Source: Pseudomonadota bacterium (GTDB lineage: Bacteria > Pseudomonadota > Gammaproteobacteria > Ga0077536). From it: DNA of 64,000 nucleotides. A program made the position numbers and the translations under genes. The stretch covers positions 35,868 through 99,867 of the forward strand of contig JAYYFI010000018.1 of assembly GCA_036158955.1 (NCBI GenBank), given 5' to 3'. Below the pieces are notes generated by a model. That model made no database searches, was not told the origin of the DNA, and worked only from the letters and a program-made list of their open reading frames with translations. How positions within the stretch are numbered: position 1 is the first letter of the stretch; every line of letters begins with the position of its first letter. This document shows, one piece after another, positions 631-14,995 of this stretch.

Positions 631-1095
631 ATGAAATCTACTAATTGTCTTACATCGTCGATGATAAAAGTCGGAGACATTCTGGAAAGAAAAATATCGT
701 TTACACACCAAGATGTGGTTGACTATTGCAATTTAGCCAAAGATTTTAATGCTATTCATCATGATATAGAAGCTGCGCGGTTGCGATTCCCAAATATTAA
801 AGACATAGTAGTTCCTGGTGCATTATTACAAATATCAATAGCAGGTATTTTTGGAAGTCACTTTCCAGGCGATGGTAGTTTGGGCCTTACGTTTGAGCCG
901 GAAAGGGTAAAACGGCCAGTTTGTCCTGGAGATGAGCTTTTAGTCAAATTAGAGCTTGTTCGAAAAAAAGTTGATATGGCTGAATTTAAAATTACGATTG
1001 AAGATATGTCAGGTTTTCAGGTCAGTGGTGCAAAGTCAAGAGTGTTATTGCCTGACGATTCATATCGAAGATGGTGGGAAACTCAAAACAATTAG
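631..1095 (+). CDS. MaoC-like (R)-specific enoyl-CoA hydratase / hotdog-fold dehydratase
   Basis: A 154-aa ORF of typical MaoC dehydratase length and sequence character (I did not pick out a specific motif), sitting next to a BVMO and an LLM oxidoreductase. An alternative start at the ATG at 661 is possible. Confidence 0.6.
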   Translation: MKSTNCLTSSMIKVGDILERKISFTHQDVVDYCNLAKDFNAIHHDIEAARLRFPNIKDIVVPGALLQISIAGIFGSHFPGDGSLGLTFEPERVKRPVCPGDELLVKLELVRKKVDMAEFKITIEDMSGFQVSGAKSRVLLPDDSYRRWWETQNN

Positions 1096-1111
1096 AGGGT
1101 CAATCTACAAT

Positions 1112-1957
1112 ATGAAAATAGGACTTAATATTTTTCCCACTGACAAAGCGATCTCACCAATTGTTCTGGCAAAAGAGGCGGAGATTAGAGGTTTCGAATC
1201 ATTGTGGTTCCCGGAACATAGCCACATACCAACTAGTAGAGAAACGCCATGGGGTGGTGATCCTTCATTGCCTCCTCTTCCAGAAATGTATTGGCGAACA
1301 GTTGATCAATTTGTTGCACTTTCCGCAGTAGCTGCTTCCACAACAGAACTTAAAATTGGAACGGGTATTACCCTCGTCGCACAGCGAGATCCTATCTGGT
1401 TAGCGAAAGAAGTAGCAAGTTTAGATTATATTTCAAATGGTCGTCTTCTTTTTGGAATAGGCTATGGCTGGTGCGTTGAAGAAATGAGAAATCATGGTGT
1501 CAATTATAATGAAAGAAGGGATATTTTGAGAGAAAAAATATTATTAATGAAAGAGTTGTGGGTTAAAGATGAAGCAGAATTTAATGGAACCATACACCAG
1601 TTAGAAAAGAGTTGGGCGTGGCCGAAGCCAGTCCAAAAACCGCATCCTCCGATTATATTGGGAGGTGCGGTAGGAAAGAAAACAGCCCGACATATCGCTG
1701 AGTTTTGTGATGGTTGGATGCCATTAGGTCGTTATGGCGATATAAAAAAAGGGATAAGCCTGATTCAAGATGCAGCTGCTGAAATTGGCAGAGACTTAAG
1801 CAATTTTGAAACAAGTATGTTTTGCGTTACGCCAATTAAGAAAGACAAAATTGCGAAATTATCAGAGCAAGGTTTAACTAGACTTATCCTGCCTTTACCA
1901 GCTGAAGATGAAATTAGCGTCCTGCCCATATTGGATGAATATTCCGCTCTGATTTAA
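1112..1957 (+). CDS. LLM-class (luciferase-like) flavin-dependent oxidoreductase
   Basis: The six-frame ORF 956-1957 is N-terminally over-extended. The likely start is the ATG at 1112 (MKIGLNIFPTDK...), where the luciferase-like TIM-barrel profile begins (EAEIRGFESLWFPEHSH). It is paralogous to 13913-14953. Confidence 0.8.
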   Translation: MKIGLNIFPTDKAISPIVLAKEAEIRGFESLWFPEHSHIPTSRETPWGGDPSLPPLPEMYWRTVDQFVALSAVAASTTELKIGTGITLVAQRDPIWLAKEVASLDYISNGRLLFGIGYGWCVEEMRNHGVNYNERRDILREKILLMKELWVKDEAEFNGTIHQLEKSWAWPKPVQKPHPPIILGGAVGKKTARHIAEFCDGWMPLGRYGDIKKGISLIQDAAAEIGRDLSNFETSMFCVTPIKKDKIAKLSEQGLTRLILPLPAEDEISVLPILDEYSALI

Positions 1958-3155
1958 TCGTTGCCCATGTAAAAATGGGTTTTTCAAAAACATTTTTATT
2001 TTTTTCTTTGTCAAAACCTACTTTAAGATTTGTAGTCTCACTTCCGGCGCCATCAGGTCTGAACACGACTGATTTAAGTTTACGACAAACAAGCCTATTA
2101 ATTTTTTTAGTTCCTCCTATGCCTTCTATTGGTCTTGAGGATTTTACTTTTCCATTCTTTTGCAAAGATATTTGGCATGTTATGTGGAAGTTTACGGGCT
2201 TGGATTGAAAGTGATTTAAAAGTTTAAAATAACTGAATTCATATAAGTTTGTTGTTTGATCGAGTCCTATATTGTTACTCTGATTGGTATATTCTTTAAA
2301 TTTGCGATAATTACCATGTAGTAGATGCCAATCTGCTTTTATTCTAAGAGTAATTTGCAAAAGATTGTTGGCGTTTTCTTTTTTCAGCAGATCGATAGCT
2401 TCTTTAAGGTATCTCTCTCCCAACATTCTGAAGTTTAGAATTGAGTTTTTTCTAGATAATTTCTCAATCGGATCCGTTTGTCTATCTGAGTATATTTTTT
2501 CTTCTTCGATTCCAAAGATAGGCTCACCTTTCCAAAGCAAAAAGTGTTGTTCGATTGCAAAAGTGATAGCCGAGCGTAGCCAGAGTGCTTCTGCTACTAT
2601 TTTTGGGCATATTGTAATTATTGTCTGTTCTAATATATTACCCAATGTTTCGTCAGCTTGAAGAAGATTTTGGTATGGTGCAGTCGATTCATCGTAAAAG
2701 GCTAAATTTAAATAAGAAAGCGCACTCCACATCGAATACTGAATTTTATGAATTGGGTGTATTTCCTTTGATCTTAAAATAAGGTTATTGAAAATGTTCT
2801 GATATTTGTAATAGCGAGAGAAATCTTTTTCAGAAAGAGTTAGCTCCATCAATGGTACTAAAGCTTTAATTTGTGTTGGGGAGTATAAGCCGTAGTTTCC
2901 TCGCATCATTCTTAATGCTTTCTCAAAAGAATTATACCCACTTTTATATTTTTTATCGTGGAAATTTTCAAGTCCGGTAGTTAATAATGTATTTATCTCT
3001 TTTGAAATTGTGACATTAACTTCAGTATGCAGTTGATTATTTAAAGATTTTTTACTAAAAAGAAATGAGTCTGAGGTATCTGAACAGTCCACTTTCTCGA
3101 TTGAAAAACATTTCAAAGAGCAGATCAATAGTAATAAAAAGGCTATGTATTTCAT
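1914..3155 (-). CDS. hypothetical secreted protein (signal peptide), unknown function
   Basis: A long ORF. The plausible start is MKYIAFLLLLICSLKC (N-terminal signal peptide) at 3155. I recognise no family. The 3' end overlaps the LLM gene by about 44 nt, so the C-terminus may be mis-called. Confidence 0.35.
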   Translation of the reverse strand: MKYIAFLLLLICSLKCFSIEKVDCSDTSDSFLFSKKSLNNQLHTEVNVTISKEINTLLTTGLENFHDKKYKSGYNSFEKALRMMRGNYGLYSPTQIKALVPLMELTLSEKDFSRYYKYQNIFNNLILRSKEIHPIHKIQYSMWSALSYLNLAFYDESTAPYQNLLQADETLGNILEQTIITICPKIVAEALWLRSAITFAIEQHFLLWKGEPIFGIEEEKIYSDRQTDPIEKLSRKNSILNFRMLGERYLKEAIDLLKKENANNLLQITLRIKADWHLLHGNYRKFKEYTNQSNNIGLDQTTNLYEFSYFKLLNHFQSKPVNFHITCQISLQKNGKVKSSRPIEGIGGTKKINRLVCRKLKSVVFRPDGAGSETTNLKVGFDKEKNKNVFEKPIFTWATIKSERNIHPIWAGR

Positions 3156-3171
3156 TACTCTCTCAACCATC

Positions 3172-4575
3172 TTATATTCGGTTAATTGATCTAAGGTTTT
3201 CGTTATGTGTTTGTCTAGAGATATTATAGAAAAACAACAAAGATACAGCTATAAAATAAATAATGGCCAAGCAAATTAGGCTAGTTAAAACTAATTCATT
3301 TACTATGGACCCAGGGATACTTTTTTCTGTGGAATCTTGAGGGAATTCTACAAACTTAAGAATCTGGCCGGCTAAAAGGATTCCAAGACTGTTTAGAGCT
3401 TTTTGAGTAAAACTGCTTGCTGCATAGTACAGACCTTCTGACCGTTGAAAATTTTTCTTTTCATTGTCTTCAACAATGTCAGCAAACATTGCAGAGAAAT
3501 AAATAGAAGCCATTATCGCTAAGCTAGTTTCAATAAAAGAAAAAATCATTAGCATAGGCAATAAAAATTCGGAATTATTTTGAGGGAACAGTCCAATAAA
3601 TCTTAAAATAAAAGGTATTGGTGCTATAAAAATACATAATACAACGCACAGGATAGCACATCGTTTTTTGTCAAGTTTTTGTGAAAATTTTGGTGCTAGT
3701 ATCGAGGCCAGAATCGCAGAAAGGAATAAAGGTAATTGCAGAATGCCAATCTCTGCTGTACTTAATTCCCAAAAATGGCGAGTGAAATAGATTCCAAGAC
3801 TCATAGTAACTCCAGCTGCCATGGCAAAGAACGAAGCAGAGCTAAATAGAGCGAGGAACTGCCTATTTGTTATCGCGTCAATTGTATAGATCAAAATTTG
3901 CTTAATAGGTTTTCTTTGTGGTGGAGGCTGAGGCAAATTAGGTATTTCGTAGTGAAGACCTATTCCACTGCAATAAATTGACGCTATGATTAAGCAGGAA
4001 GCAGTTAAACCGTAAGAGCTCCAACCTTCCAAATAATTTAAGCCTCCTTTTTCTTCAGGTAAAAAAACCAGATACACGAGGGTTGCCATAGTAAGCCCGC
4101 CCCACCAACCGAAAAGATACCTGGCGGCTGAAAGTTTTGTCCTTTTATCGTAATCTAGAGATAGTTCTGGTCCCAAAGCCACCGATGGTACTTCATAAAA
4201 TGTCATTAAAAATCTTGTTAATATAGTTAGACTGATGAAATAGATAAACAAATTGTCTTGGTCGAGCGATGGTGGACTCCATAAAAAATAATAAGAAACA
4301 GCGGCTGGCAACCCAAAAATATAAATAAATAAGTGTCGCCTACCTAATTTCGACCTAAAATTATCAGATATTGTTCCTATTAGCGGATCCGTGAAAGCAT
4401 CGATTACAAGAGCAATCGCTAATCCGAATGAAACTTTTTCAGGTGGGAGGCCCATAATCTGGCTATAAAAATAGAGAAGTAGGTAATTAAATCCATTGGC
4501 TTTTACGCCAAATGCTACAGCGCCGCTTCCGTAGAATAGAAGGTGATTTTTAAAATTGTCTTTAAAAATTTTCAT
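3172..4575 (-). CDS. MFS transporter, glycoside-pentoside-hexuronide (GPH)/cation symporter-like
   Basis: 467 aa with about 12 predicted TM helices. The N-terminal FYGSGAVAFGVK...DAFTDPLIGTISD signature resembles MelB/GPH-family symporters. Confidence 0.75.
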   Translation of the reverse strand: MKIFKDNFKNHLLFYGSGAVAFGVKANGFNYLLLYFYSQIMGLPPEKVSFGLAIALVIDAFTDPLIGTISDNFRSKLGRRHLFIYIFGLPAAVSYYFLWSPPSLDQDNLFIYFISLTILTRFLMTFYEVPSVALGPELSLDYDKRTKLSAARYLFGWWGGLTMATLVYLVFLPEEKGGLNYLEGWSSYGLTASCLIIASIYCSGIGLHYEIPNLPQPPPQRKPIKQILIYTIDAITNRQFLALFSSASFFAMAAGVTMSLGIYFTRHFWELSTAEIGILQLPLFLSAILASILAPKFSQKLDKKRCAILCVVLCIFIAPIPFILRFIGLFPQNNSEFLLPMLMIFSFIETSLAIMASIYFSAMFADIVEDNEKKNFQRSEGLYYAASSFTQKALNSLGILLAGQILKFVEFPQDSTEKSIPGSIVNELVLTSLICLAIIYFIAVSLLFFYNISRQTHNENLRSINRI

Positions 4576-4670
4576 ATAGACTCTTTTCCTGAAAGGATAG
4601 CTCCCTGGTCCAATCGATAGCCATTAAATTTCTATGGCTCAAGCTGTTTTTTGATGTTATTACTATACGT

Positions 4671-5573
4671 ATGAATTCAGTAGATATCACTAAGTTAATT
4701 ACGATGTTACGGATGAAACCGATGTTTTCTCATGAGTTCTCTGTTGCTTCCATGAGGGAAGCTGTTGATTATGCGGGCAATAAGGTTGTTCCCCTGCCAG
4801 ATATAGTAAAGGAGAAAGTTGGAAGCGAAAGCGGCTTGGAAATTTTTAAATTTAGCCCTACTATTTTAAGTCATAGAAATGCAATTTTATACTTACATGG
4901 AGGAGGTTATTGCATCGGATCGACCTCATCTCACCGTCCGATAATAGAACGTCTTTGTGCTGACTTTGGTGGGGTTGTTTATTCGTTGGATTACAGGCTA
5001 GCGCCCGAGTATAATTTTCCAGTGCCCTTAATTGATTCAACTAGAGCTTATCAATGGCTCTTGTCAGAGGGTTATTCCTCAAGTGAACTTGCGATAGTAG
5101 GTGACTCAGCCGGAGGTGGGCTTACTCTTTCAACATTGATAAATTTAAGGGAGGAGGGTATCCCACTACCAAGTAGTGGTGTGCTTATTTCCCCTTGGCT
5201 TGATCTATCCTCGAGTGGAAATTCGATCACAAAAAATGAAAGTATTGACCCCATAATTAATAGAGAAACACTTAACTCTTTTGCTTACAAATATTTAAAT
5301 GGAGCTTTGCCAACGACTCATTTAGCTTCACCATTATTTGCTGAATTAAATGATTTACCTCCTATCTTGTTGCAGGTTGGAGATATGGAAATGCTGTTCG
5401 ATGATTCGATTCGACTTAAAGAGAAGGCGGCCGATTACAATATTCAAGTAGAGTTAAAAATATGGAAAAAAATGGTTCATGTTTGGCATATATTTGCTCC
5501 AATTTTACCAGAGGGTCAAGCAGCGATTATAGAAATCTCAAGTTTCATAAAAAAAATGATGAAACTTGATTAG
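4671..5573 (+). CDS. alpha/beta hydrolase, hormone-sensitive-lipase (fold-3) family esterase/lipase
   Basis: It has the HGGGY oxyanion-hole motif and a GDSAGG nucleophile elbow, characteristic of the Aes/HSL family of carboxylesterases. Confidence 0.8.
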   Translation: MNSVDITKLITMLRMKPMFSHEFSVASMREAVDYAGNKVVPLPDIVKEKVGSESGLEIFKFSPTILSHRNAILYLHGGGYCIGSTSSHRPIIERLCADFGGVVYSLDYRLAPEYNFPVPLIDSTRAYQWLLSEGYSSSELAIVGDSAGGGLTLSTLINLREEGIPLPSSGVLISPWLDLSSSGNSITKNESIDPIINRETLNSFAYKYLNGALPTTHLASPLFAELNDLPPILLQVGDMEMLFDDSIRLKEKAADYNIQVELKIWKKMVHVWHIFAPILPEGQAAIIEISSFIKKMMKLD

Positions 5574-5579
5574 AACGAA

Positions 5580-6449
5580 TTAAAGTTGCCCTGTCGCTTT
5601 AGCAGCTGAAATATCTGACTGCTCTTGAAATTGGGGTGTTTCATCTCTTTCTTCTCTAGTATCAACACCCTCTGTTGAACTAGCTTCAACTTGCCATGTC
5701 TGTTCACCCCATTCATTATGAAGGATCCTGGGCTCTGTTTCTTTATCTTCCGATTCAAATAAATCCAGAGCACTTTTGATTATCGAAATCTGATCCTTCA
5801 CATCAAAAGGTCTGCCAGCGGAGTGGCCTAGTGGGTAGTTTGTGAATACTGCTCTTGGCGGTTTCCCACTTTGGAAAATATCAAGCGCTGAACCGACGCA
5901 GACTGTGGGCAGCTTATTCTCTTCAAGGTATCTAGCGATCAAACACACGGTTTGATGACAAACTGGTCACATCGGAACTAGCAGTGCGATGTCTACCTTT
6001 TGACGTCGGAATTCGGATAATACTGCTGGGGCTAGCTCGCTTAAAACTCGCCTCTGGGAATAAATGCCGCCCATACAGCTGAGAATTTCATTCGCTACTG
6101 ATTTAACATATCCTTTTGACTCAAGGAAATTAAGCTGATTAATTGGGAAAATACAATTTGGATCTTTTCTAGCATTAACTAAGTAATTTTCGGTTATATG
6201 TGAAAAATGTATATTTTGGGTTGCTGTTTCCTTTTTAATTTTTCTGATAGAGGTATCGTCTTTGTAATGAAACGCTTTTTGGCCGATAGCATATGCACCA
6301 GATGTTGAAAGAAGTCCAAGTTTACTTTCCTTAACTGGTAACTTTAAGTTACATTTATGTGTCTCACTATCAGCCTTGAACCATCGATAGGGTTGGTAGC
6401 CTAAATTTTGGTATCTTTGTTTTATAACATCTATATAATCGACAATCAT
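5580..6449 (-). CDS. GrdB/PrdB-family (glycine/betaine/proline reductase B-subunit-like) reductase; candidate selenoprotein with in-frame UGA (Sec) at 5967-5969
   Basis: Two same-frame ORFs (5967-6449 and 5580-5948) are separated by a single TGA. Read-through gives ...ALLVPM-U-PVCHQTVCLIARYLEE..., a UxxC redox motif, for about 290 aa in total. The downstream piece has only a GTG start and no independent RBS. A 7-bp stem / 5-nt loop hairpin with a GU-containing loop (AUCAAAC-CGUGU-GUUUGAU) begins 11 nt after the UGA, which is the geometry of a bacterial SECIS element. Confidence 0.55.
5938..5956 (-). ncRNA. SECIS-like mRNA stem-loop immediately 3' of the in-frame UGA
   Basis: mRNA sequence: UGA CCAGUUUGUC [AUCAAAC CGUGU GUUUGAU] CGC. 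It has a 7-bp stem and an apical loop containing GU. An alternative 5-bp pairing GUUUG/CAAAC also exists. Confidence 0.4.
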
Positions 6450-6570
6450 TCAAAGAGCTTACAAGAGCTAAATATGATAGTCTACAAATAAATTATAATT
6501 AATTAACAAAAAAATATTTGTTAACAAACTAATACATTGTTTCAATTTTAAAAAGGATTTAGGAGGAGAA

Positions 6571-7245
6571 ATGGGAGACATTACATTAACTAGTTCAGAT
6601 GGCCATCGTTTTGATGTGTTTGAAGCTTTGCCAGAAGGAGAAGCCAAAGGTGGTATAGTAGTTTTACAAGAAATATTTGGAGTCAATCAACATATTAGAG
6701 AAGTTGCTCAAGGATATGCTGATAAGGGTTATGCAGCACTAGCTCCAGCGATTTTTGATAGGGTGGAACGAAAAATTGAATTTGGTTATGAAGATCAAAG
6801 CGAATTTGATAGAGGGCTCGACATTGCTTTTTCTAAACTTTCGATTGGCGATGCATTGGTTGATATCCAAACTACTGTAGACGCACTTGCCAAATTTGGC
6901 AATGTAGGCGTGGTTGGTTATTGTTTCGGAGGACTACTGACATGGTTATCTGCCTGTAGTGTATCTGGATTGTCGGCAGCGTCTTGCTATTATGGTGGAG
7001 GAATATCCGATAACCTAGACCAGGAAAACAAATGTCCTACGATTATGCACTTTGGTCTGAAAGACCCGTATATACCTGTTGAGCAAATTGAAAAAATAAA
7101 AGCGAAATTATCCCATCTTGATATTTATACTTATGATTCTGATCATGGGTTTAATTGCAATCATAGGGGGAGCTATGATGAGAATAGTGCTGACCTGGCT
7201 TTGAGTCGAACCTTAACTTTTTTCGCTGATAAACTTGGTTCATAA
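6571..7245 (+). CDS. dienelactone hydrolase family protein (carboxymethylenebutenolidase-like)
   Basis: 224 aa of typical DLH length, with a strong AGGAGG RBS directly upstream of the ATG. The family call rests on overall N-terminal sequence character. Confidence 0.8.
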   Translation: MGDITLTSSDGHRFDVFEALPEGEAKGGIVVLQEIFGVNQHIREVAQGYADKGYAALAPAIFDRVERKIEFGYEDQSEFDRGLDIAFSKLSIGDALVDIQTTVDALAKFGNVGVVGYCFGGLLTWLSACSVSGLSAASCYYGGGISDNLDQENKCPTIMHFGLKDPYIPVEQIEKIKAKLSHLDIYTYDSDHGFNCNHRGSYDENSADLALSRTLTFFADKLGS

Positions 7246-7269
7246 GCCAAGAATTAAGAAGTTAGCGAG

Positions 7270-8469
7270 TTGGATAAAAATGATTATTTGAAACTTTTTT
7301 TAATTGCTACGGTTTTAGCTTTAGCGTATGGAATTTGGTATTCCTATAGTGTATTTCTAGTTGCATTTGATGAAACGTTTAATTGGTCACGGTCAACTCT
7401 CGCTGCGGGCTTCTCAATTTTTGCATTAGTTCACGGCGTTACTAATCCAGTATCGAGCGCTTTGTGCGACAGAATTAATTCAGGTATCTTGGTTGTAGCC
7501 GGTGGATTCTGTATTAGTATCAGTCTGCTATTGGTAAGTTTCATAAAGACTCCCTTCGATTTATTTTTATTTTTCGGGGTCTTTACCGCTATTTCTGTCA
7601 GTATGTGTGGTTGGGGTCCCTCTTTGGTACAAGTTCAAAGGAGTTTTAAACATAACTTAGGGTTTGCCATTGGTTTCGTAAGTTCAGGGATTGGGGTTGG
7701 GATGGTGATTGCGGTGCCGCTCATTCAGCTTTGTATTGACACTTTTGGTTGGCGGAATTGCTTTAGAATCTTATCGGTCATCACTTTTGTGGTCATCATT
7801 CCTATTGGGTTATTTTTGACTAAAAATTTCGTCGCTGGTTTGTCGTCGCAGTCGTTGGATAATAAAAACCCAAAGACATCTTCTCTTAATCTTTCGCAAG
7901 CATTTAAAACTGGTCAATTCTGGCTACTGGTTTCTTTATACTTTTTTGGAAGTATGGGGGCTCAAACTTTGCATGTTCACCAAGTCGTGTATCTGGTTGA
8001 AAAGGGAATATCACCAATTGTCGGTGCATCGGTTGTAAGTGTTGTTGGTTTATCAAGTATATTTGGCAAACTAGCCGGTGGGTATTTGTCAGATAAGGTT
8101 GAGCGCGAAAAGGTTTTTATTGCTGGAAACATAATTTTAATTGCGGGAATTTTTATATTATATTTTGCAGGAGAGAAAGCTTCGGTGCCGTTGGCTTATA
8201 TTTTTGCTATTTGTTTGGGAATAGGTTACTCGTCTACTGCAGCAATAGCCCCAGCTATAATAAGTGATCACTTCGGAGGAAGGCATTTCGGAAAAATTTT
8301 AGGAATTGGTTTATTTGGAGGAGCTTCTGGCGCTGCGGTTGGTCCTTTTGTTGCGGGCGAATTATTCGACAACTTTGGAAATTATAAGTTAGCCTTTATT
8401 TTTGCGGTAGTTTCAATTCTGATTGCTTTGTTATGTTGCACAGTGGTTAGGTTAAATAAATATAAATAA
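7270..8469 (+). CDS. MFS transporter
   Basis: 399 aa with 12 predicted TM segments and MFS-like loop motifs. The start appears to be a TTG at 7270, since there is no in-frame ATG near the N-terminus. Confidence 0.75.
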   Translation: MDKNDYLKLFLIATVLALAYGIWYSYSVFLVAFDETFNWSRSTLAAGFSIFALVHGVTNPVSSALCDRINSGILVVAGGFCISISLLLVSFIKTPFDLFLFFGVFTAISVSMCGWGPSLVQVQRSFKHNLGFAIGFVSSGIGVGMVIAVPLIQLCIDTFGWRNCFRILSVITFVVIIPIGLFLTKNFVAGLSSQSLDNKNPKTSSLNLSQAFKTGQFWLLVSLYFFGSMGAQTLHVHQVVYLVEKGISPIVGASVVSVVGLSSIFGKLAGGYLSDKVEREKVFIAGNIILIAGIFILYFAGEKASVPLAYIFAICLGIGYSSTAAIAPAIISDHFGGRHFGKILGIGLFGGASGAAVGPFVAGELFDNFGNYKLAFIFAVVSILIALLCCTVVRLNKYK

Positions 8470-8492
8470 ACAATATTATCGGAGAGAATTAA

Positions 8493-9278
8493 ATGGAATT
8501 AGATTCAGATATAACTGCGATAGTCACTGGCGGGGTTTCCGGTTTGGGAGCGGCAGTAGTTAGTGCACTGAGAGAAAGAAAAGTAAATGTATCGGTTTTC
8601 GATTTGGGTTCAGATAATTCGAGTCATAATTCCAAAGACCCCTACGTCAACTATATAAATTGTGATGTTGCTGATCAAGATAGTTGTTTATCGGCATTTA
8701 CGTCATCTCGTGAACGTTTTGGACAAGAGCGGATTCTTATAAATTGCGCTGGAATTAATTTTGCCTCAAAGACCGCGTCAGTTGGGAAGAAGGATAAAAT
8801 TATTAAAACTTTTCCAATCGACCAATTTATAAAAACAATTAATGTGAATTTGATTGGTACATTTAGATGTGCGTCATTGTCCGCTGCTGGAATGCTTGAC
8901 CTCCCAGTACTTGGTGATAGTGAGGAACGCGGGGTCATTATCAATACTGCTAGCATTGCAGCGACAGATGGACAAATCGGCCAGGCGGCTTATGCTTCTT
9001 CAAAAGCAGGGGTTGTTGGCTTAACTTTACCTGTTGCGAGAGATTTAATGGATTACGGGATCAGGATTAATACCATAATGCCGGGAATTTTTGATACACC
9101 AATGCTAGCGGCTTTGCCTGATAACGTCAGGGATGCTATCGCTGAGAATATCCCTTTCCCAAGAAGGCTAGGTCAAACTGAAGAGTTTGCGAAGCTTGCA
9201 CTTAGTATCATTAATAATAGTTATTTAAATGGAGAAAGTATTCGGTTAGATGGTGGAGTAAGACTGGCAGCAAAATAA
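8493..9278 (+). CDS. SDR-family oxidoreductase, 3-hydroxyacyl-CoA dehydrogenase type-2-like
   Basis: TGGVSGLGAA Rossmann motif, the SDR catalytic YASSK (YxxxK) motif, and a C-terminal substrate region like HSD17B10/FadB2-type enzymes. Confidence 0.8.
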   Translation: MELDSDITAIVTGGVSGLGAAVVSALRERKVNVSVFDLGSDNSSHNSKDPYVNYINCDVADQDSCLSAFTSSRERFGQERILINCAGINFASKTASVGKKDKIIKTFPIDQFIKTINVNLIGTFRCASLSAAGMLDLPVLGDSEERGVIINTASIAATDGQIGQAAYASSKAGVVGLTLPVARDLMDYGIRINTIMPGIFDTPMLAALPDNVRDAIAENIPFPRRLGQTEEFAKLALSIINNSYLNGESIRLDGGVRLAAK

Positions 9279-10904
9279 CTAGTTATTTTGAAGAATTTTT
9301 ATAGCATCTTTCCTTAATTCTACTTTCCTTATTTTACCGCTTGAAGTCATGGGAAATTCGTCAACTATAATTGTATGTCTGGGAATTTTGAAGCTAGCTA
9401 TTTTCCCGGTCATTGCATTGATAATAAATTCAGAATCGATGGAACTGTCTTTTTCGGTTATTATGAACGCTACTGGGACTTCTGCCATTCTTTCATCTGG
9501 ATATCCTACTACTGCAGCATCTTTTATTTCAGTAAATTTCCTGAGATAGACTTCAATTTCTGCAGGCGAAACATTTTCTCCTCCAACCTTTAGCATGTCT
9601 TTGTATCGACCCATGAATACGAGCATCCCATCTTTTCGAATCATAGCCATATCGCCGCTATGGATCCAACCATTTGCGTCAATGGTTGCCGCGGTCGCTT
9701 CGGGTTTTTTCCAGTACTCCTGCATATTTGCATATCCTTTTATCAAGAGTTCGCCTGGAACGCCTTCAGCTTGATCTTTGCCTGTTTCAGGATCGATAAT
9801 TTTAAAATGATAGTCGTTCATTGGATATCCAGAAGCATGAGTGCGTTGTTCTCGTGAGTGAGATAAATTCCCGGCAGATACAAACGCCCAAGTCTCGCTC
9901 ATACCAAACCCACTGATTGTTGGGCAAAATACATCTTGCACCTCTTCAGCAATAGGAATTGTACTTTCAACTCCGGAAGGAAGGGTTCCGAATCTGATTT
10001 GTAACTTTCTCTTCTTATTTTTTTGAGCATTAAGCAAATCCAGCCAGTGAGCTTCGAAACCATGTAAAATTGTGGCTTTCTTTTCAGAAGCTAAATCAAG
10101 AACGGTTTCCGCATCAAAAACATCCATCAAAACTTGACAAGCTCCCGTGAGCACGCAAGTCATCGTAATTTCACTGAATCCATAAATATGAAAGAGAGGT
10201 AGGTAGCTCATGTGGATATCATTACATGTTAAGCCAAAAATCTGAGCTCTTTCTGCTACGTTCCTAATTGGGATATGGGAATGAACGACGCCCTTAGGAT
10301 CACCAGTTGTTCCTGATGTGTAGGCAATCATCATTCTTTTATTCGGATCAACCGTAGCTGCTGCTTCCTTTAAGGTTTCATCTGAGGTTTGATGACCCAG
10401 CTCTATGAATTCGTCCCATTCAAGTCCTCCATCTATTAAATTTTTACCAACAACAACACTATGTTCGAGGTCAGGATAGCCTGCGCTTTTAAAACTTTGC
10501 TTTGATGAAGATTCCGTGTCACCCATGGTGGCAATTAGCATATCTTGATAATTAATTGGACCAGATTCTTCCAATAAGAAAATCATTTTGGAGTTAGATT
10601 GTTTTAATGCATATCCTAAATCATCGGTCCTATATCTGGTATTTAATGGAACTATGCAGGCGCCTATTTGGATAGCCCCATACATTATAAATATCCATTC
10701 GGGCCTATTGGTCATCCAAATGGCAATATTATCTTCGGCATTTATATCTAATGCTAGAAGAGCCTTTGATACCTTGTCCGCATGATTTTTGAAATCATCA
10801 TAGCTCCATTGGTCGTCATTAAAAATGATCGCTGTTTTGTCCCCGTGCTTTTGGCAGGTTGTGACTAAAGTATCACCTAGTGTTCTTTGCTTATACCAAT
10901 CCAT
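9279..10904 (-). CDS. AMP-dependent synthetase/ligase (acyl-CoA synthetase family)
   Basis: AMP-binding motif YTSGTTGDPKGV, and GEI/TSSGKIRK at the C-terminus. I place the start at the ATG at 10904 (MDWYKQRTLG...), so the upstream 23 codons of the six-frame ORF are probably not translated. Confidence 0.85.
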   Translation of the reverse strand: MDWYKQRTLGDTLVTTCQKHGDKTAIIFNDDQWSYDDFKNHADKVSKALLALDINAEDNIAIWMTNRPEWIFIMYGAIQIGACIVPLNTRYRTDDLGYALKQSNSKMIFLLEESGPINYQDMLIATMGDTESSSKQSFKSAGYPDLEHSVVVGKNLIDGGLEWDEFIELGHQTSDETLKEAAATVDPNKRMMIAYTSGTTGDPKGVVHSHIPIRNVAERAQIFGLTCNDIHMSYLPLFHIYGFSEITMTCVLTGACQVLMDVFDAETVLDLASEKKATILHGFEAHWLDLLNAQKNKKRKLQIRFGTLPSGVESTIPIAEEVQDVFCPTISGFGMSETWAFVSAGNLSHSREQRTHASGYPMNDYHFKIIDPETGKDQAEGVPGELLIKGYANMQEYWKKPEATAATIDANGWIHSGDMAMIRKDGMLVFMGRYKDMLKVGGENVSPAEIEVYLRKFTEIKDAAVVGYPDERMAEVPVAFIITEKDSSIDSEFIINAMTGKIASFKIPRHTIIVDEFPMTSSGKIRKVELRKDAIKILQNN

Positions 10905-10944
10905 ATTAAAAAAGTGTAACAGGTTATTTGTTTGGGTAAAGTGT

Positions 10945-11952
10945 TTACTCAAATTTGATCGATATTCTACCAATTGTTTTTTGATCTAAAATTAAGTTCA
11001 TCGCGTCACTAGCCTCGCTCAGTTTAAAAGTGTTGGATACCTTAGGATTTATTTTACCATTTAAGTACAAGTCAAAAAGTTGATTTATTAACCGATCCAT
11101 TGTTGGCTTATATTTTTCCCTATGGTCGACTGGGCCCCAACCAAAATAAAGTCCCATGTTCAAACCGCAGACAGTTATGTTTTTGACTAATAGCAAATTA
11201 GTTGGGATAGAAGGAATTCTACCGCTTGCGAAACCGATCGGTATAATTCTTCCTTCGGGCTTTAAACATCGAATTGACTCGGTAAATACGTCGCCTCCAA
11301 TTGGGTCAAAAACTGCGTCCACGCCTTCATTGTTTGTAAGAGTCATGATTTTTTTTTTGAAAAATGCAGGTTTGTTTAGAATCACTTGATCTGCTCCAAA
11401 TTCTTCTGCAGCCTTCATTTTCTTTGGGTTGCTAACCGCCGCTATTACTCTTGCTTTTTGCGCTTTTGCAATTTCAATTGCAGCCGATCCAACCCCACCA
11501 GTGGCTCCATGAACTAATAGGGTTTGGTTTTTTCTTAAATTTAGAAGGTGGCTCCACGATAGAGCTGCTAAAGAAGTAGCGTAAGTATTGGTGAAAGTGA
11601 TGGCTTTTTCATAGCTTAATTCATCTGGGATCGGAAATATATTTGTGACATGGGCACACGCATATTCCGCTAATCCACCATAATCAACGACTGCACAAAC
11701 TCTCTGCCCTTGAAAAAATTGTTTTTGATCACTATCAGTAGAAGCGATCTCCCCGGCGATTTCTGTCCCTGGAATAAAGGGGAGGGGAGGTTTGACTTGG
11801 TATTTTCCTTGAACTACCAAATTAGTGGCAAAACTTAAACCAGCGGCTCTAATCTTTATTAAATATTCATGTTTTTTGGGTTTCGGAATCGGATGCTCTT
11901 TTACTTTTAGGTTTTCAAATGGCTGCCATTTCTCTACAAGCAATGCTTTCAT
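10945..11952 (-). CDS. NADPH:quinone oxidoreductase / zinc-type alcohol dehydrogenase-like (MDR superfamily)
   Basis: GATGGVGSAAIEIAK Rossmann motif and an MDR fold layout. 335 aa. Confidence 0.8.
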   Translation of the reverse strand: MKALLVEKWQPFENLKVKEHPIPKPKKHEYLIKIRAAGLSFATNLVVQGKYQVKPPLPFIPGTEIAGEIASTDSDQKQFFQGQRVCAVVDYGGLAEYACAHVTNIFPIPDELSYEKAITFTNTYATSLAALSWSHLLNLRKNQTLLVHGATGGVGSAAIEIAKAQKARVIAAVSNPKKMKAAEEFGADQVILNKPAFFKKKIMTLTNNEGVDAVFDPIGGDVFTESIRCLKPEGRIIPIGFASGRIPSIPTNLLLVKNITVCGLNMGLYFGWGPVDHREKYKPTMDRLINQLFDLYLNGKINPKVSNTFKLSEASDAMNLILDQKTIGRISIKFE

Positions 11953-12043
11953 AAAACACGTCCGAGTTCAATTTTATTGAATGGACATATAAGCAAACAT
12001 AATTATAAAATTCAACTATGAATAAAAAATAAGAGTAATTTCT

Positions 12044-13210
12044 ATGTCCACAAATAAAAAAACACAAACCGGACCTCTAAATGGCGTTAAAGTCATTGAA
12101 ATGGCTGGGATCGGGCCAAACCCTATGTGCGCCATGTTGTTGGCCGATATGGGAGCAGAAGTGATAAGAATTGATAGAACAGTTGATGGTGGTTTGGGCA
12201 TAGCTCTGGACCGAAAATATAGAGTTTTAGACAGGAGCAGGTCTTCAGTTGCTGTTGATTTGAAAAAGCCCGAGGGGGTTGAAACAGTGCTTAAATTGAT
12301 TGCGCATGCAGATGCATTAATTGAAGGTTTTAGACCGGGCGTAATGGAAAGATTGGGTTTAGGGCCTGACAAATGCATGGAAGTTAATCCAAAACTTGTT
12401 TTTGGTAGAGTGACCGGCTGGGGACAATATGGTGCGTTAGCAAAATCTGCTGGTCATGATATAAATTATATATCGCTTGTCGGAGCATGTCATAGTATTG
12501 GACATGACGGTGAGCCACCAGTACCGCCTTTAAACTTAATAGGTGATTTTGGTGGTGGAGGCATGCTGCTTGCGGTTGGGGTCTTAGCGGCTATATTAGA
12601 ATCGAAAACCTCTGGTCAGGGGCAAGTCGTAGATGCTGCCATGACCGATGGAACTGCCACTTTAATGGCTGCACTGTATGGGCTACATGCTGCAGGTATC
12701 TGGAGTGATTCGCGGCAAAACAATATCTTGGATGGAGGCGCTCATTTTTACAATACTTATGAGACTAAAGATAAAAAGTATATTTCGATAGCGTCAATTG
12801 AGCACAAATTTTACGAAATTTTAAAAGAGTTAATTGGTTTTGAAGATCATAGAAATTCGGCTCATAAAAACAAAGAATCGTGGCCAGACAGTAAAAAGCA
12901 ATTAACAGAAATCTTCAGACAAAAAACTAGAGATGAATGGTGTAAATTGTTAGAAGGTACAGACGTTTGCTATGCTCCCGTGTTGAATCTGCGAGAAGCT
13001 CCAGAACACCCACATAATAAAGATAGGCAGACTTTCACTGAAGTTGAAGGAGTTATTCAACCATCTCCTTCTCCAAGATTCAGTAGGACACCCTCTACAA
13101 TTCAAAGTCCACCTTCAGAAAACGGGGAGAATACTGATCAAGTTTTGAAAGCATGGGGCTTTACTAATGACGATATTTCAAAATTAAAAGATAAAGGAGC
13201 AATCAGCTAA
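12044..13210 (+). CDS. CaiB/BaiF family-III CoA-transferase (alpha-methylacyl-CoA racemase-like)
   Basis: N-terminal LNGVKVIEMAGIGPNPMCAMLLADMGAEVIRIDR plus a conserved Asp-containing core. It is paralogous to 24881-26089. Confidence 0.85.
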   Translation: MSTNKKTQTGPLNGVKVIEMAGIGPNPMCAMLLADMGAEVIRIDRTVDGGLGIALDRKYRVLDRSRSSVAVDLKKPEGVETVLKLIAHADALIEGFRPGVMERLGLGPDKCMEVNPKLVFGRVTGWGQYGALAKSAGHDINYISLVGACHSIGHDGEPPVPPLNLIGDFGGGGMLLAVGVLAAILESKTSGQGQVVDAAMTDGTATLMAALYGLHAAGIWSDSRQNNILDGGAHFYNTYETKDKKYISIASIEHKFYEILKELIGFEDHRNSAHKNKESWPDSKKQLTEIFRQKTRDEWCKLLEGTDVCYAPVLNLREAPEHPHNKDRQTFTEVEGVIQPSPSPRFSRTPSTIQSPPSENGENTDQVLKAWGFTNDDISKLKDKGAIS

Positions 13211-13244
13211 TGTGGTTTAATGCTTTATTCTCTCGTAATCAAAA

Positions 13245-13901
13245 TCAAATTCCTCTCATTTTTGTTTTCTCGCTATCAGCGTGATAAGTACTTTTGGCGC
13301 TTTCCCGATTATGCATTTTTTCAAACCATGCATTAATATGATTAAGCTCTGTTGGAATGGTTTGGTTTACACCTGCACCAAAGTCTAGTGCGCAATATAA
13401 AATTATATCTACTAATTTCATATCTTTTCCGGTTATGTATTCCTTACCTTCCATCTGAGCATCGAGCCATTTGAGTTTTGTTTGAACTATTGTTGATAGT
13501 CCGTCCACCGCTTCCGGGATTACCGTCATTCTTTCTTTGAATATGTCTATTCCCACACTATACCTGAAAGCATTATAGAGATGTTCGGTGATGTTTAACT
13601 CTATTCTTCTTTGCCATTGTCGATGGTCAGCTCTTTCTTGAGGAGTGCTTCCTATCAGAGCTGGTTCTGGATAATGTTCTTCAAGGTACTCACAAATTAC
13701 TACTGTTTCCCCAATTACCGTGCCATCATCTAGCTCGAGTGCTGGGATTTGGCCGCCTGGATTTTTATCCAGATAGTCTTTTTTACGGTTTTCAGCCCCA
13801 AGCAACATATCATATTCAACGAATTCTATGTCTAACCCTTTCTCTTTTAAAAACATTCTTACTTTTCTAGGATTAGGTCCTAGTGAATTATAAAGTTTCA
13901 T
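13245..13901 (-). CDS. glutathione S-transferase family protein
   Basis: 218 aa with an N-terminal thioredoxin-like GST domain followed by an alpha-helical C-terminal domain. It is the last gene of a co-directional BVMO-LLM-GST set on the minus strand. Confidence 0.75.
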   Translation of the reverse strand: MKLYNSLGPNPRKVRMFLKEKGLDIEFVEYDMLLGAENRKKDYLDKNPGGQIPALELDDGTVIGETVVICEYLEEHYPEPALIGSTPQERADHRQWQRRIELNITEHLYNAFRYSVGIDIFKERMTVIPEAVDGLSTIVQTKLKWLDAQMEGKEYITGKDMKLVDIILYCALDFGAGVNQTIPTELNHINAWFEKMHNRESAKSTYHADSEKTKMRGI

Positions 13902-13912
13902 TTTCTCTCCTA

Positions 13913-14953
13913 TTATTTTTTAAATGCTGGTAGTACGTTTTTAGCAAAGATATCCATGCTTTTGTGAATGAGGTTAGGTGCAAGGCCTGGTAACGCCATT
14001 TGTAATACCATATGGGTAATCCTTCCTCTGCCGACATACTCAGAAATCATTTGCTTCGCGTCATCTGGAGTTCCAACGATGGCGTCTTCCCCAAAAAAGT
14101 TGAAAGATTGTGCTTTTATCATCTCTTCAACAGTAGGTAGGTTTTTTAAAGCCTGATCATCACCCTCTTGGTCGTTTGCCTCTGCAAACCATTTTGCATA
14201 ACACTCGGTCAAATAGTGTAAACTTTGGGCGCATTCTTCCCAAGCTTGAGATCGGCTTTTAGCAACATATACTGCCCTTTGTGCTGCAATGTTATATTCT
14301 TTTGGGTCTCTGCCTGCTGCGGTTAAGGCACCGTCATAGGCAGCATTGAGCTCGGCGGGACCGACGCTTTGAAAATGAAAACCCATCTTTGCGGCTCTTT
14401 CGATTGCTTTAGGAGCAATAGCTCCTAACCAAATCGGAGGATGGGGTCTTTGAAGTGCGGGTGGAGATATTTTAATGTCTTTTAGATAATAATATTTTCC
14501 TTCGTGTGTGACTGACTCACCAGCCAACAGTTTCTGCACTATTGCCATTCCTTCTTGCAACCTGCCACCTCTCTCAGTATGCGAGATCCCTTGATCGGAG
14601 AATTCTTTCCTTCGATATCCTAAACCAACACCTAGGTCAAACCGTCCGTTTGACATTAAGTCCACCGTAGCCGTGTCTTCGGCTAATCGAATTGGATTAT
14701 GAAGAGGTGCAAGCACTAAAAAGGTGCCAATACGCAAATTCGTTGTTCTTTGAGATAAAGCGGCCGCAATAGCTAACAGTGAGGGAGAATATCCATCGTC
14801 AACAAAATGATGCTCTGTGAGCCAAGCATCGTCGTATCCTAACCCCTCTGAAGCGGATATTAAATCTAGATGGGAACGATAAAGTTGCTCCCAGGGAACT
14901 TTGTTAAAAGCAGGATTTCTAAAAGGCCAAAGGACGCCAAATCTTAAATTCAT
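13913..14953 (-). CDS. LLM-class flavin-dependent oxidoreductase (luciferase-like monooxygenase)
   Basis: 346 aa with a luciferase-like TIM-barrel profile (GYDDAWLTEHHF..., HPPIWLGA). It lies 9 nt downstream of the BVMO gene on the same strand. Confidence 0.85.
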   Translation of the reverse strand: MNLRFGVLWPFRNPAFNKVPWEQLYRSHLDLISASEGLGYDDAWLTEHHFVDDGYSPSLLAIAAALSQRTTNLRIGTFLVLAPLHNPIRLAEDTATVDLMSNGRFDLGVGLGYRRKEFSDQGISHTERGGRLQEGMAIVQKLLAGESVTHEGKYYYLKDIKISPPALQRPHPPIWLGAIAPKAIERAAKMGFHFQSVGPAELNAAYDGALTAAGRDPKEYNIAAQRAVYVAKSRSQAWEECAQSLHYLTECYAKWFAEANDQEGDDQALKNLPTVEEMIKAQSFNFFGEDAIVGTPDDAKQMISEYVGRGRITHMVLQMALPGLAPNLIHKSMDIFAKNVLPAFKK

Positions 14954-14995
14954 TTCACTCTCCCCAATAAATTAAGTTTTCATTTAAACAAAATT

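Follow-up and report, generated by a model that had tools for sequence, protein, structure and literature searches.

An in-frame UGA probably read as selenocysteine in a stand-alone proteobacterial branch of the PrdB/GrdB superfamily

Within the 64-kb stretch of DNA analysed here (the window), two neighbouring hypothetical ORFs on the minus strand very probably form one gene, which would encode a 289-residue cytoplasmic selenoprotein of a stand-alone proteobacterial branch of the PrdB/GrdB superfamily (Table 1). Reading the UGA between them as selenocysteine (Sec) restores a 289-residue enzyme from two hypothetical ORFs of 160 and 122 aa. The upstream ORF runs for 160 codons from its ATG (6449-6447) to position 5970 and is followed directly by the TGA, after which the frame stays open for 128 codons up to the TAA at 5582-5580. 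The read-through peptide, LLVPM-U-PVCHQTVC, places Sec at residue 161 of 289, and the tryptic peptide across this residue would be VDIALLVPM-U-PVCHQTVCLIAR. These coordinates agree with the original prediction of two same-frame ORFs split by a single TGA, with Sec near residue 161 of about 290.

Table 1. Features of the predicted selenoprotein gene, in window positions
Feature	Position	Strand	Details or basis
Complete read-through CDS, predicted PrdB-like selenoprotein	5580..6449	-	289 codons plus TAA stop; single frame
In-frame UGA, codon 161, predicted to be read as selenocysteine	5967..5969	-	Codon conservation, Cys homologues, PrdB alignment, six assemblies
U-P-V-C redox motif: Sec161, Cys164, then invariant His165 and Gln166	5958..5969	-	Homologue alignment
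SECIS core hairpin	5938..5956	-	5' arm AUCAAAC 5956-5950, loop CGUGU 5949-5945, 3' arm GUUUGAU 5944-5938
122-aa 'downstream ORF' from GTG	5580..5948	-	Separate gene according to gene callers

Comparison among homologues, rather than the single sequence, is decisive for the predicted selenocysteine. Across 165 homologous loci, which comprise representative genomes, metagenome loci and six assemblies of the same organism (L081-L086), the codon at the UGA column was TGA in 152 and TGC or TGT in 13, and never TAA or TAG; a Cys codon at this place in relatives was one of the checks that the original prediction proposed. The 152 TGA loci span alpha-, beta-, and gammaproteobacteria, and the representative genomes alone gave 75 TGA against 5 TGC/TGT. 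One TGA form comes from a cultured carrier, Rhodospirillaceae bacterium SYSU D60007 (QOCQ01000010.1, locus L038). At the protein level, Cys occupies the Sec column, within CPVCHQ, in 73 of 74 full-length homologues, and the full-length Cys homologues (288-300 aa) align end to end as single continuous proteins. The annotated in-frame TGA of the Terrisporobacter and Peptoclostridium prdB genes aligns to the window UGA column, which puts the predicted Sec in the annotated Sec column of PrdB. Of the 45 long ORFs in the window, 10 end in TGA; the codon thus keeps its ordinary meaning as a stop, and genome-wide UGA reassignment was rejected on this ground. Two scans of the window, for TGA-interrupted ORFs or TGAs in redox motifs, gave no credible further selenoprotein candidate.

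The sequence after the UGA can form a hairpin with a 7-bp stem and a 5-nt loop, which lies inside the CDS, its first base being the 11th nucleotide past the UGA. The UGA-to-loop spacing is 17 nt, the second loop position is G followed by U, and two more pairs (5959-5958 with 5936-5935) may extend the helix across a 1x1 internal loop. The minimal E. coli fdhF SECIS element must also sit 11 nt after its UGA. Of 125 distinct TGA forms, 113 have all seven stem pairs and the other 12 have six of seven, whereas the Cys forms retain three to six pairs and the complete stem occurs in none of the 13 (TGA versus Cys, Fisher p = 9e-12), the only Cys-form DNA sequences available as a control. The Cys forms also fold less well despite a higher GC content in the compared 45 nt. 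The hairpin claimed in the original prediction, with SECIS geometry and loop CGUGU, stands in its coordinates, with a stem that is complete in TGA forms only. The extended helix has 12 pairs, six of which are invariant among 73 distinct sequences, and compensatory changes occur at pairs 15-31 (CG in 41, UA in 25) and 18-28 (GC in 62, AU in 10), which, counted from the U of the UGA, correspond to window positions 5955/5939 and 5952/5942. Part of this covariation (CAA/TTG versus CAG/CTG) could track genome GC content. SelB-dependent recoding leaves just such a mark, namely a hairpin of bSECIS geometry that the TGA forms keep and the Cys forms lose.

On single-sequence folding, the window hairpin is not more than expected by chance. 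A 76-nt fold of the window sequence gave a z-score of -1.94 with a different hairpin as its minimum-energy structure, and the local 63-nt MFE of -11.9 kcal/mol is reached via another structure as well. The core hairpin alone is A/U-rich and weak, at -6.5 kcal/mol against a published model limit of -7.5, and homologous TGA forms average -11.0 kcal/mol. No Rfam match was obtained for the whole window at gathering thresholds, nor for 5800-6100 at E values up to 10; bacterial SECIS elements are not usefully modelled in Rfam.

The thermodynamic weakness of the hairpin in the window lineage would suit a reading in which the UGA is passed without Sec, through near-cognate Trp or Cys or through Cys carried on tRNA(Sec), with the full Sec pathway absent or unused. 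We regard this as very unlikely, as the hairpin with bSECIS geometry and a conserved loop G-U follows the TGA forms and not the Cys forms, and TGA is a normal stop elsewhere in the window. Furthermore, the homologous TGA of PrdB is an experimentally established Sec site (Kabisch et al. 1999, cited through PMC1088965 and PMC13188914). Conserved geometry and comparison together point to Sec insertion, in which SelB carrying Sec-tRNA(Sec) would bind the hairpin and recode the UGA at codon 161.

The joined translation gave its best score among curated models with NCBIfam PrdB (TIGR04483), whose match spans the UGA (residues 34-241; E = 2.6e-33) and reaches 115.4 bits, below the equivalog cut-off of 300 bits. 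GrdB-type models scored lower, with 13.4 bits for PF07355 (cut-off 22) and 17.2 for TIGR01918 (cut-off 65.45); overall, the GrdB/GrdF/GrdH models gave 13-27 bits against cut-offs of 22-800, and only the C-terminal third aligned. Some homologues carry a precomputed PF07355 match, so membership of the superfamily, which counts roughly 2,800 representatives, stands. The original prediction of a GrdB/PrdB-like selenoprotein with a UxxC motif, whose homology continues seamlessly past the UGA, is thus upheld by a match that spans the codon, by the shared PrdB Sec column, and by the end-to-end alignment of the Cys homologues. In an alignment of 42-43 homologues, C/U161, P162, C164, H165, and Q166 are invariant, and the AlphaFold structure predicted for a Cys homologue with 53% identity places the motif between a strand (154-158) and a helix (162-177). 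The protein also keeps many PrdB residues that are invariant or near-invariant in its own family, namely Asp65, Arg69, His84, Pro102, Met-Gly-Gly126-128, U-x-x-C-H, Arg173, Pro-Arg198-199, Gly208, and Gly212.

These similarities raise the question of whether the protein is in fact PrdB, the B subunit of a D-proline reductase, with its PrdA partner encoded at a distance in the genome. The best curated model is indeed that of PrdB, the Sec column and many residues are held in common, several homologues bear the JGI name 'D-proline reductase (dithiol) PrdB', and the literature files the family under PrdB (PMC1088965, PMC2398784). However, the score of 115 bits lies far below 300, identity to real PrdB reaches only 28-31%, and both termini carry extensions peculiar to the family. 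A tblastn search with Terrisporobacter PrdA found no homologue in the window or at about 166 homologous loci (6-10 kb, less on short contigs), whereas the real prdB of one locus (L089) lies directly after prdA. The hosts also carry oxygen-dependent monooxygenases, unlike the Stickland-fermenting anaerobes that use Prd. We therefore find a genuine PrdB very improbable. As it misses the PrdB equivalog cut-off, has its own terminal extensions and never lies beside a PrdA/GrdE-type pyruvoyl partner, the window protein is probably not a D-proline reductase, as far as its sequence and gene context indicate. For the same lack of an accompanying PrdA partner, the 'PrdB' label given by the literature and by JGI probably misstates the function.

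Public assemblies annotate 160-aa and 122-aa products at this locus, exactly the split expected if the UGA were a true stop, leaving either two polypeptides (the second from GTG 5948) or a pseudogene created by a nonsense mutation. Single-sequence folding is unremarkable, as described above, and the Sec machinery was not seen in the window: ARAGORN found no tRNA in the 64 kb, and hence no tRNA-Sec, and tblastn with E. coli SelA, SelB, and SelD found no selA, selB, or selD there, a result that bears neither way on the genome. Among the homologous loci, the only SelA/SelB/SelD match by tblastn was a SelD-fusion gene adjoining one homologue (locus L011), which counts for the Sec reading. Several observations nevertheless make a true stop highly improbable. 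The column holds TGA in all 152 stop-bearing loci, and the Cys homologues each form one uninterrupted protein. With a true stop, the invariant PVCHQT codons, which are located between the TGA and the GTG, would go untranslated. GTG 5948 is the sole start codon in the downstream piece and falls within the hairpin loop, and no Shine-Dalgarno-like sequence precedes it (30 nt upstream: GTTCCGATGTGACCAGTTTGTCATCAAACC), just as the original prediction had noted a GTG start without a ribosome-binding site. Purifying selection acts on both sides of the UGA, with dN/dS of 0.09 before it and 0.10-0.21 after, and amino-acid identity to the relative L001 is 88% before and 89% after. Six independent assemblies of the same organism all keep the TGA, with 3-11 nucleotide differences and at most one amino-acid change, and the gene shows no frameshifts or extra stops in any of the six. 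The identical gene is also present on near-complete ENA contigs, namely ERZ28548091 north_1__contig_43365_pilon (1.89 Mb), ERZ28548078 hoskyn_2__contig_38031_pilon (1.90 Mb), and ERZ28548069 erskine_4__contig_30250_pilon (1.90 Mb). The 122-aa downstream ORF is an artefact of gene calling halted at the UGA; 44 database products stop exactly at ...LLVPM, at the Sec column, which shows that this mis-call is common in the family. That the TGA is a misread or misassembled TGC or TGT, from which it differs by one base, is a negligible prospect, given that 115 blocks of the sequence collection index a 160-aa product of identical sequence, that the TGA is present in all six assemblies despite their 3-11 differences elsewhere in the gene, and that the closest species-level relatives, L001 and L002, carry TGA too.

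The predicted selenoprotein gene is monocistronic and sits among hydrolase genes, as originally described, with a convergent Abhydrolase_3 esterase-type gene (4671-5573, plus strand) on one side and a divergent dienelactone hydrolase gene (6571-7245, plus strand) on the other. Hydrolases, MFS transporters, an SDR, an acyl-CoA ligase, and a CoA-transferase lie in the wider neighbourhood, and no grd or prd genes were found in the 64-kb window. Scans for promoters and terminators did no better than on shuffled sequence. Across the neighbourhoods of 80 genome loci there was no universal partner gene; a CoA-transferase III gene lies within 6.5 kb in 22 of them, and DLH, MFS, and SDR genes each occur near 11-13 homologues, in related marine lineages only. 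At 13 marine gammaproteobacterial loci the PrdB-like gene is the last in a methylamine-dehydrogenase-like cluster with a heavy chain, MauE, a MauD-like redoxin, a light chain, and a c-type cytochrome-like ORF, which hints that the protein may help to break down amines or to process what this breakdown yields.

Selenenyl-sulfide chemistry is established for the B subunits of D-proline and glycine reductases. By analogy with PrdB and GrdB, Sec161 would act as the nucleophile and Cys164 as the resolving thiol, and the selenenyl-sulfide formed between them would then be re-reduced by a cellular dithiol system. With low confidence, and again by analogy, we suggest that the enzyme could reductively split a small organic molecule at a C-N or C-X bond beside a carboxyl or carbonyl group, which would fit the surrounding catabolic gene island. 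Every characterised member of the PrdB/GrdB superfamily needs, to our knowledge, a pyruvoyl partner subunit. None was seen around the window gene or its homologues. A tentative proposal, which we would not yet favour over its opposite, is that the stand-alone 'uPVCHQ' branch is a self-contained selenoenzyme, whose extensions replace the pyruvoyl partner and which, in aerobic alpha-, beta-, and gammaproteobacteria, carries out an unfamiliar type of reduction.

The window gene is a member of the marine 'PrdB' selenoprotein family and not a new one, as this family has been in print since 2005. It is listed as 'Proline reductase PrdB' (UxxC) in the selenoproteomes of the Sargasso Sea in 2005 (PMC1088965) and of GOS in 2008 (PMC2398784), and ranks among the most abundant selenoprotein families in both data sets. 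The original prediction is thus correct yet not novel, and its description of marine GrdB/PrdB-like selenoproteins as poorly characterised holds in part: neither paper gives a function beyond the PrdB label, but the family is abundant and was already catalogued in 2005 and 2008. No experimental evidence for the uPVCHQ family was found in the selenoproteome literature cited here. In the surface ocean, the family counts as one of the most abundant selenoproteins, and the excess of Sec over Cys in the representative genomes (75 versus 5) implies that streamlined marine bacteria have a genuine need for selenium.

Compared with the published marine 'PrdB' family (Zhang, Fomenko & Gladyshev 2005; Zhang & Gladyshev 2008), the window protein and its homologues share the UxxC motif, the marine metagenomic origin, and the predominance of Sec over Cys forms, which in GOS number 235 and 110 (PMC2398784). 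The same uPVCHQTV motif and hairpin appear in the 2005 supplement (PMC1088965), for example in AACY01491494 (TGACCAGTCTGCCACCAAACCGTGAGTTTGGTT). The uPVCHQ sequences there are 40-50% identical to the window protein, and no identical or near-identical sequence was found in the supplement text searched. The published set is heterogeneous, as it includes uPFCTRAV, uPICTGAV, and other types with different C-terminal domains. With regard to the hairpin, the bSECISearch consensus, as summarised in PMC13188914, allows the loop at 16-37 nt from the UGA and sets a stability limit of -7.5 kcal/mol. The window hairpin resembles this model in its place in the CDS just past the UGA, its stem, its loop G-U, and its 17-nt spacing, but the core hairpin of this AT-rich lineage is weaker, at -6.5 kcal/mol.

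GrdB, GrdF, and GrdH (PF07355, TIGR01918) belong to the same superfamily, and the window protein aligns with model positions ~278-400 of 435, so that it lacks the ~275-residue N-terminal part of the ~430-aa GrdB architecture. By HMM coordinates, the window Sec column maps near model position 349-350, and the Sec of GrdB lies near residue 350. The window motif is UxxCxxxC where GrdB is reported to have UxxCxxC, and no grdA, grdE, grdC, or trx genes lie near the window gene. Another close known system is PrdB of Peptostreptococcales (TIGR04483), for example in Terrisporobacter (pTPHSE2) and Peptoclostridium acidaminophilum. It differs in having U-G-T-C-H in the columns where the window protein has U-P-V-C-H, and the window gene has no prdA or prd operon beside it. 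The window protein is longer by ~20 N-terminal and ~50 C-terminal residues, which hold family-specific invariant Trp, Arg, and Asp, and it comes from proteobacteria that appear to be aerobic, not from anaerobes that ferment amino acids. Even so, both proteins are short compared with GrdB, and they have in common ~200 homologous residues, the same Sec column within a U-x-x-C-H motif, and Asp65, Arg69, Ser-His83-84, Pro102, Met-Gly-Gly, Arg173, Pro-Arg198-199, and Gly208.

As the original prediction stated, two ORFs in the same minus-strand frame are split by a single TGA at 5969–5967; once joined, they translate as ...VDIALLVPM-U-PVCHQTVCLIARYLEE..., the UGA being codon 161 of 289. The sole possible start of the downstream piece is GTG 5948, which, also as described, has no Shine–Dalgarno-like sequence ahead of it. 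As 10 of the 45 long ORFs of the window terminate with TGA, this codon is not reassigned. The curated PrdB model TIGR04483 spans the UGA (residues 34–241, E = 2.6e-33). The 120 best database homologues include 74 full-length proteins (about 290 aa), in 73 of which a Cys, part of an invariant CPVCHQ, aligns with the UGA; the remaining one (P0013, LLVAM-R-PVCHQ) has an Arg, possible explanations being mutation of TGA to CGA, an error, or loss of activity in this variant. Another 44 products are 160 aa long and terminate exactly at ...LLVPM, and were therefore truncated at the UGA codon by gene callers.

A DNA scan with one genome per species gave 80 alpha-, beta- and gammaproteobacterial loci, nearly all metagenome-assembled, with TGA at column 161 in 75 and TGC/TGT in five. 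The totals rise to 152 TGA versus 13 Cys codons when metagenome loci (80) and assemblies of the source organism (six) are counted as well; neither TAA nor TAG was found at this column among the counted loci, and PVCHQ follows in frame in every one. In reference prdB genes from plasmid records of Terrisporobacter (pTPHSE2, adjoining prdA) and Peptoclostridium acidaminophilum, the annotated in-frame TGA (LLTAG-U-GTCHRS) occupies exactly the same alignment column as the window UGA. Together with the 73 Cys proteins, this places the predicted Sec on the known Sec/Cys column.

A sequencing error is ruled out, since all six assemblies of the source organism keep TGA at codon 161 and the identical 160-aa product recurs in 115 blocks of the public assembly collection, some on contigs of 1.26–1.90 Mb. 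A recent pseudogene is likewise excluded by the intact frame, as the six assemblies differ from the window by 3–11 nt in the gene and by at most one conservative amino acid change (R241K), with no frameshift. In the same assemblies (ENA ERZ285480xx contigs), the 870-nt gene has no indel, and the neighbouring acyl-CoA ligase, SDR, esterase and FTHFS genes are fragmented by apparent frameshifts that vary by assembly and look like assembly errors (contig names end '_pilon'). Purifying selection downstream of the UGA is indicated by dN/dS ratios of 0.21 between the window and L001, the 88% identical locus of 'Methylococcaceae bacterium TMED69' (0.09 upstream), 0.13 between the window and a second homologous locus, L002, and 0.10 between L001 and L002. 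The pS between the window and L001 is 0.26 downstream (5580–5966) versus 0.45 upstream; the lower value may be due to constraint from RNA structure near the SECIS or, given how short the region is, to chance.

The 7-bp stem with its CGUGU loop was found as predicted. In the window sequence alone the hairpin is not statistically convincing, with z = –1.94 for single-sequence folding of 76 nt, a minimum-energy local structure that uses another hairpin, and an energy of only –6.5 kcal/mol. When 75 TGA forms, 73 of them distinct, are aligned without gaps, the stem is nearly always paired. Counting columns from the U of the UGA, pair 15–31 is C–G in 41, U–A in 25 and U–G in 2, and pair 18–28 is G–C in 62, A–U in 10 and G–U in 1, with the caveat that the latter joins synonymous sites (Gln CAA/CAG, Leu TTG/CTG), both of which could track genome GC. 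An extended 12-pair helix has 91.7% of cells paired, compared to 21–46% when the 3′ arm is shifted by 1–3 columns. As the covariation of pair 18–28 could follow GC content, the Cys forms serve as a control: among 125 distinct TGA forms all seven pairs are present in 113 and six in 12, while the 13 Cys forms have 3–6 pairs and none a complete stem (Fisher p = 9e-12), despite being GC-richer over the compared 45 nt. The usual loop among TGA forms is CGUGU, CGUGA, CGUGG or CGGGU. The window hairpin agrees with the published bacterial SECIS model (summarised in PMC13188914) in its 5-nt loop, whose second and third bases are G and U, its 7-bp stem and the 17 nt between UGA and loop, inside the permitted 16–37 nt, but its AT-rich core falls about 1 kcal/mol short of the energy limit of –7.5 kcal/mol; GC-richer homologous hairpins have a mean of –11 kcal/mol. 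The TIGR04483 match across the UGA, the Sec-column alignment and the conserved hairpin support a GrdB/PrdB-superfamily selenoprotein with a UxxC motif, and the window gene very probably encodes Sec. The descriptive statements of the original prediction were all correct.

Features of the window and of homologous loci (window coordinates unless a locus is named)
Feature	Coordinates	Strand	Remark
Upstream ORF, 160 codons	ATG at 6449 to TGA 5969–5967	minus	frame translation
Downstream continuation, 128 codons	to TAA 5582–5580	minus	same frame; frame translation
Hairpin AUCAAAC / CGUGU / GUUUGAU	5956–5950 / 5949–5945 / 5944–5938	minus	starts at eleventh nt past UGA
Abhydrolase_3 gene	4671–5573		converges with selenoprotein gene
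Dienelactone hydrolase (DLH) gene	6571–7245		diverges from selenoprotein gene
Luciferase-like monooxygenases, two	956–1957, 13913–14953		catabolic island
Family III CoA-transferase (CoA-transferase III)	12044–13210		catabolic island
GST	13245–13901		catabolic island
FMO/Baeyer–Villiger-type monooxygenase	14996–16597		catabolic island
Two MFS transporters, SDR, acyl-CoA ligase, Zn-alcohol dehydrogenase, two hydrolases	within 956–16597		catabolic island
Aldehyde:ferredoxin oxidoreductase, full length	33703–35424	plus	AFOR_N + AFOR_C
Molybdenum hydroxylase, xanthine-dehydrogenase/aldehyde-oxidase type	40015–42894	minus	959 aa; fused [2Fe-2S] domain
Cytochrome-c-like ORF and PrdB-like gene, 13 loci	L005 (6655–10483), L006, L008, L019, L024, L035, L040, L042, L044, L045, L054, L057, L071		
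Pyr_redox_2 (NADH-dehydrogenase-like) + SelD-type AIRS/AIRS_C fusion	L011: 7657–9876	minus	739 aa

The predicted esterase and dienelactone-hydrolase neighbours are present, within a catabolic island around the gene. Context varies across the homologous loci, and no universal partner gene was found among them. At 13 loci from marine gammaproteobacteria, the PrdB-like gene comes directly after a small CxxCH cytochrome-c-like ORF on the same strand, and in about 10 of these the ORF closes a methylamine-dehydrogenase-like cluster (Me-amine-dh_H, MauE, a MauD-like redoxin and Me-amine-dh_L); the PrdB-like gene may be functionally linked to amine catabolism. The window lineage has flanking DLH, MFS and SDR genes in common with those loci, without the cluster. 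The 64-kb window contains neither a tRNA gene nor homologues of SelA, SelB or SelD, an absence that tells nothing about a genome of some 1.9 Mb. The sole direct link to selenium metabolism is a fusion gene in L011, a locus from a groundwater gammaproteobacterium. Its product shares 35% identity with E. coli SelD, and the gene, located directly upstream of the PrdB-like gene and transcribed divergently from it, is the only selenium-pathway gene seen beside any homologue. Some molybdenum hydroxylases of the type in the window use a labile selenium cofactor, and if the 959-aa protein did so, the organism would possibly use selenium in a second way. Aldehyde:ferredoxin oxidoreductase, normally a tungsten enzyme of anaerobes, here shares a genome with oxygen-dependent monooxygenases.

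The window gene is correctly identified, and the selenoprotein family to which it belongs has been described before: 'Proline reductase PrdB' (UxxC) ranked third in abundance among selenoprotein families of the Sargasso Sea (42 Sec, 1 Cys; PMC1088965) and was among the top GOS families (235 Sec and 110 Cys forms, 38 samples; PMC2398784), and the 2005 supplement (PMC1088965) includes entries that have the uPVCHQTV motif and the same hairpin and are 40–50% identical to the window protein. That Sargasso Sea set (supplementary file 1, part 7) is mixed, with uPFCTRAV, uPICTGAV and uPMCPRTV forms beside uPVCHQ; the former have a long unrelated C-terminal domain (about 230–260 residues past Sec), thus the 'PrdB' label covers at least two C-terminal architectures. 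Later reviews keep the family under D-proline reductase, and our literature search yielded no paper dedicated to the stand-alone branch in proteobacteria. A family profile search recovers 2,797 of the 50%-identity representatives with E up to 1e-3, and 162 with E up to 1e-30. The name 'PrdB' probably misdescribes what the family does.

The window protein belongs to the PrdB/GrdB superfamily, yet none of its scores reaches the curated threshold for membership (TIGR04483, 115 bits versus 300; TIGR01918, 17 versus 65; PF07355, 13 versus 22). In a confident AlphaFold model (pLDDT 92.5), made for a Cys homologue sharing 53% identity, the motif is flanked by a beta-strand and the N-terminal end of a helix, as is typical of a redox CxxC, and no solved structure is similar beyond a generic three-layer alpha/beta fold. 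By analogy, PrdB-like selenolate chemistry appears most likely, though held with much lower confidence than the Sec gene itself; it would proceed via a Sec161–Cys164 selenenyl-sulfide, which would be re-reduced by a thiol system. D-proline is an unlikely substrate. Real prdB directly follows prdA, whereas tblastn found no PrdA match in the window or in about 166 homologous loci (6–10 kb flanks where the contig allowed). The window protein is only 28–31% identical to PrdB, with the U-x-x-C-H motif common to both, as well as many invariant or nearly invariant residues (Asp65, Arg69, Ser-His83–84, Pro102, Met-Gly-Gly126–128, Arg173, Pro-Arg198–199, Gly208 and Gly212). Compared to PrdB, it has about 20 extra N-terminal and about 50 extra C-terminal residues; within these extensions, Tyr13, Gly17, Tyr21, Trp247, Trp252, Arg268 and Asp279 are invariant.
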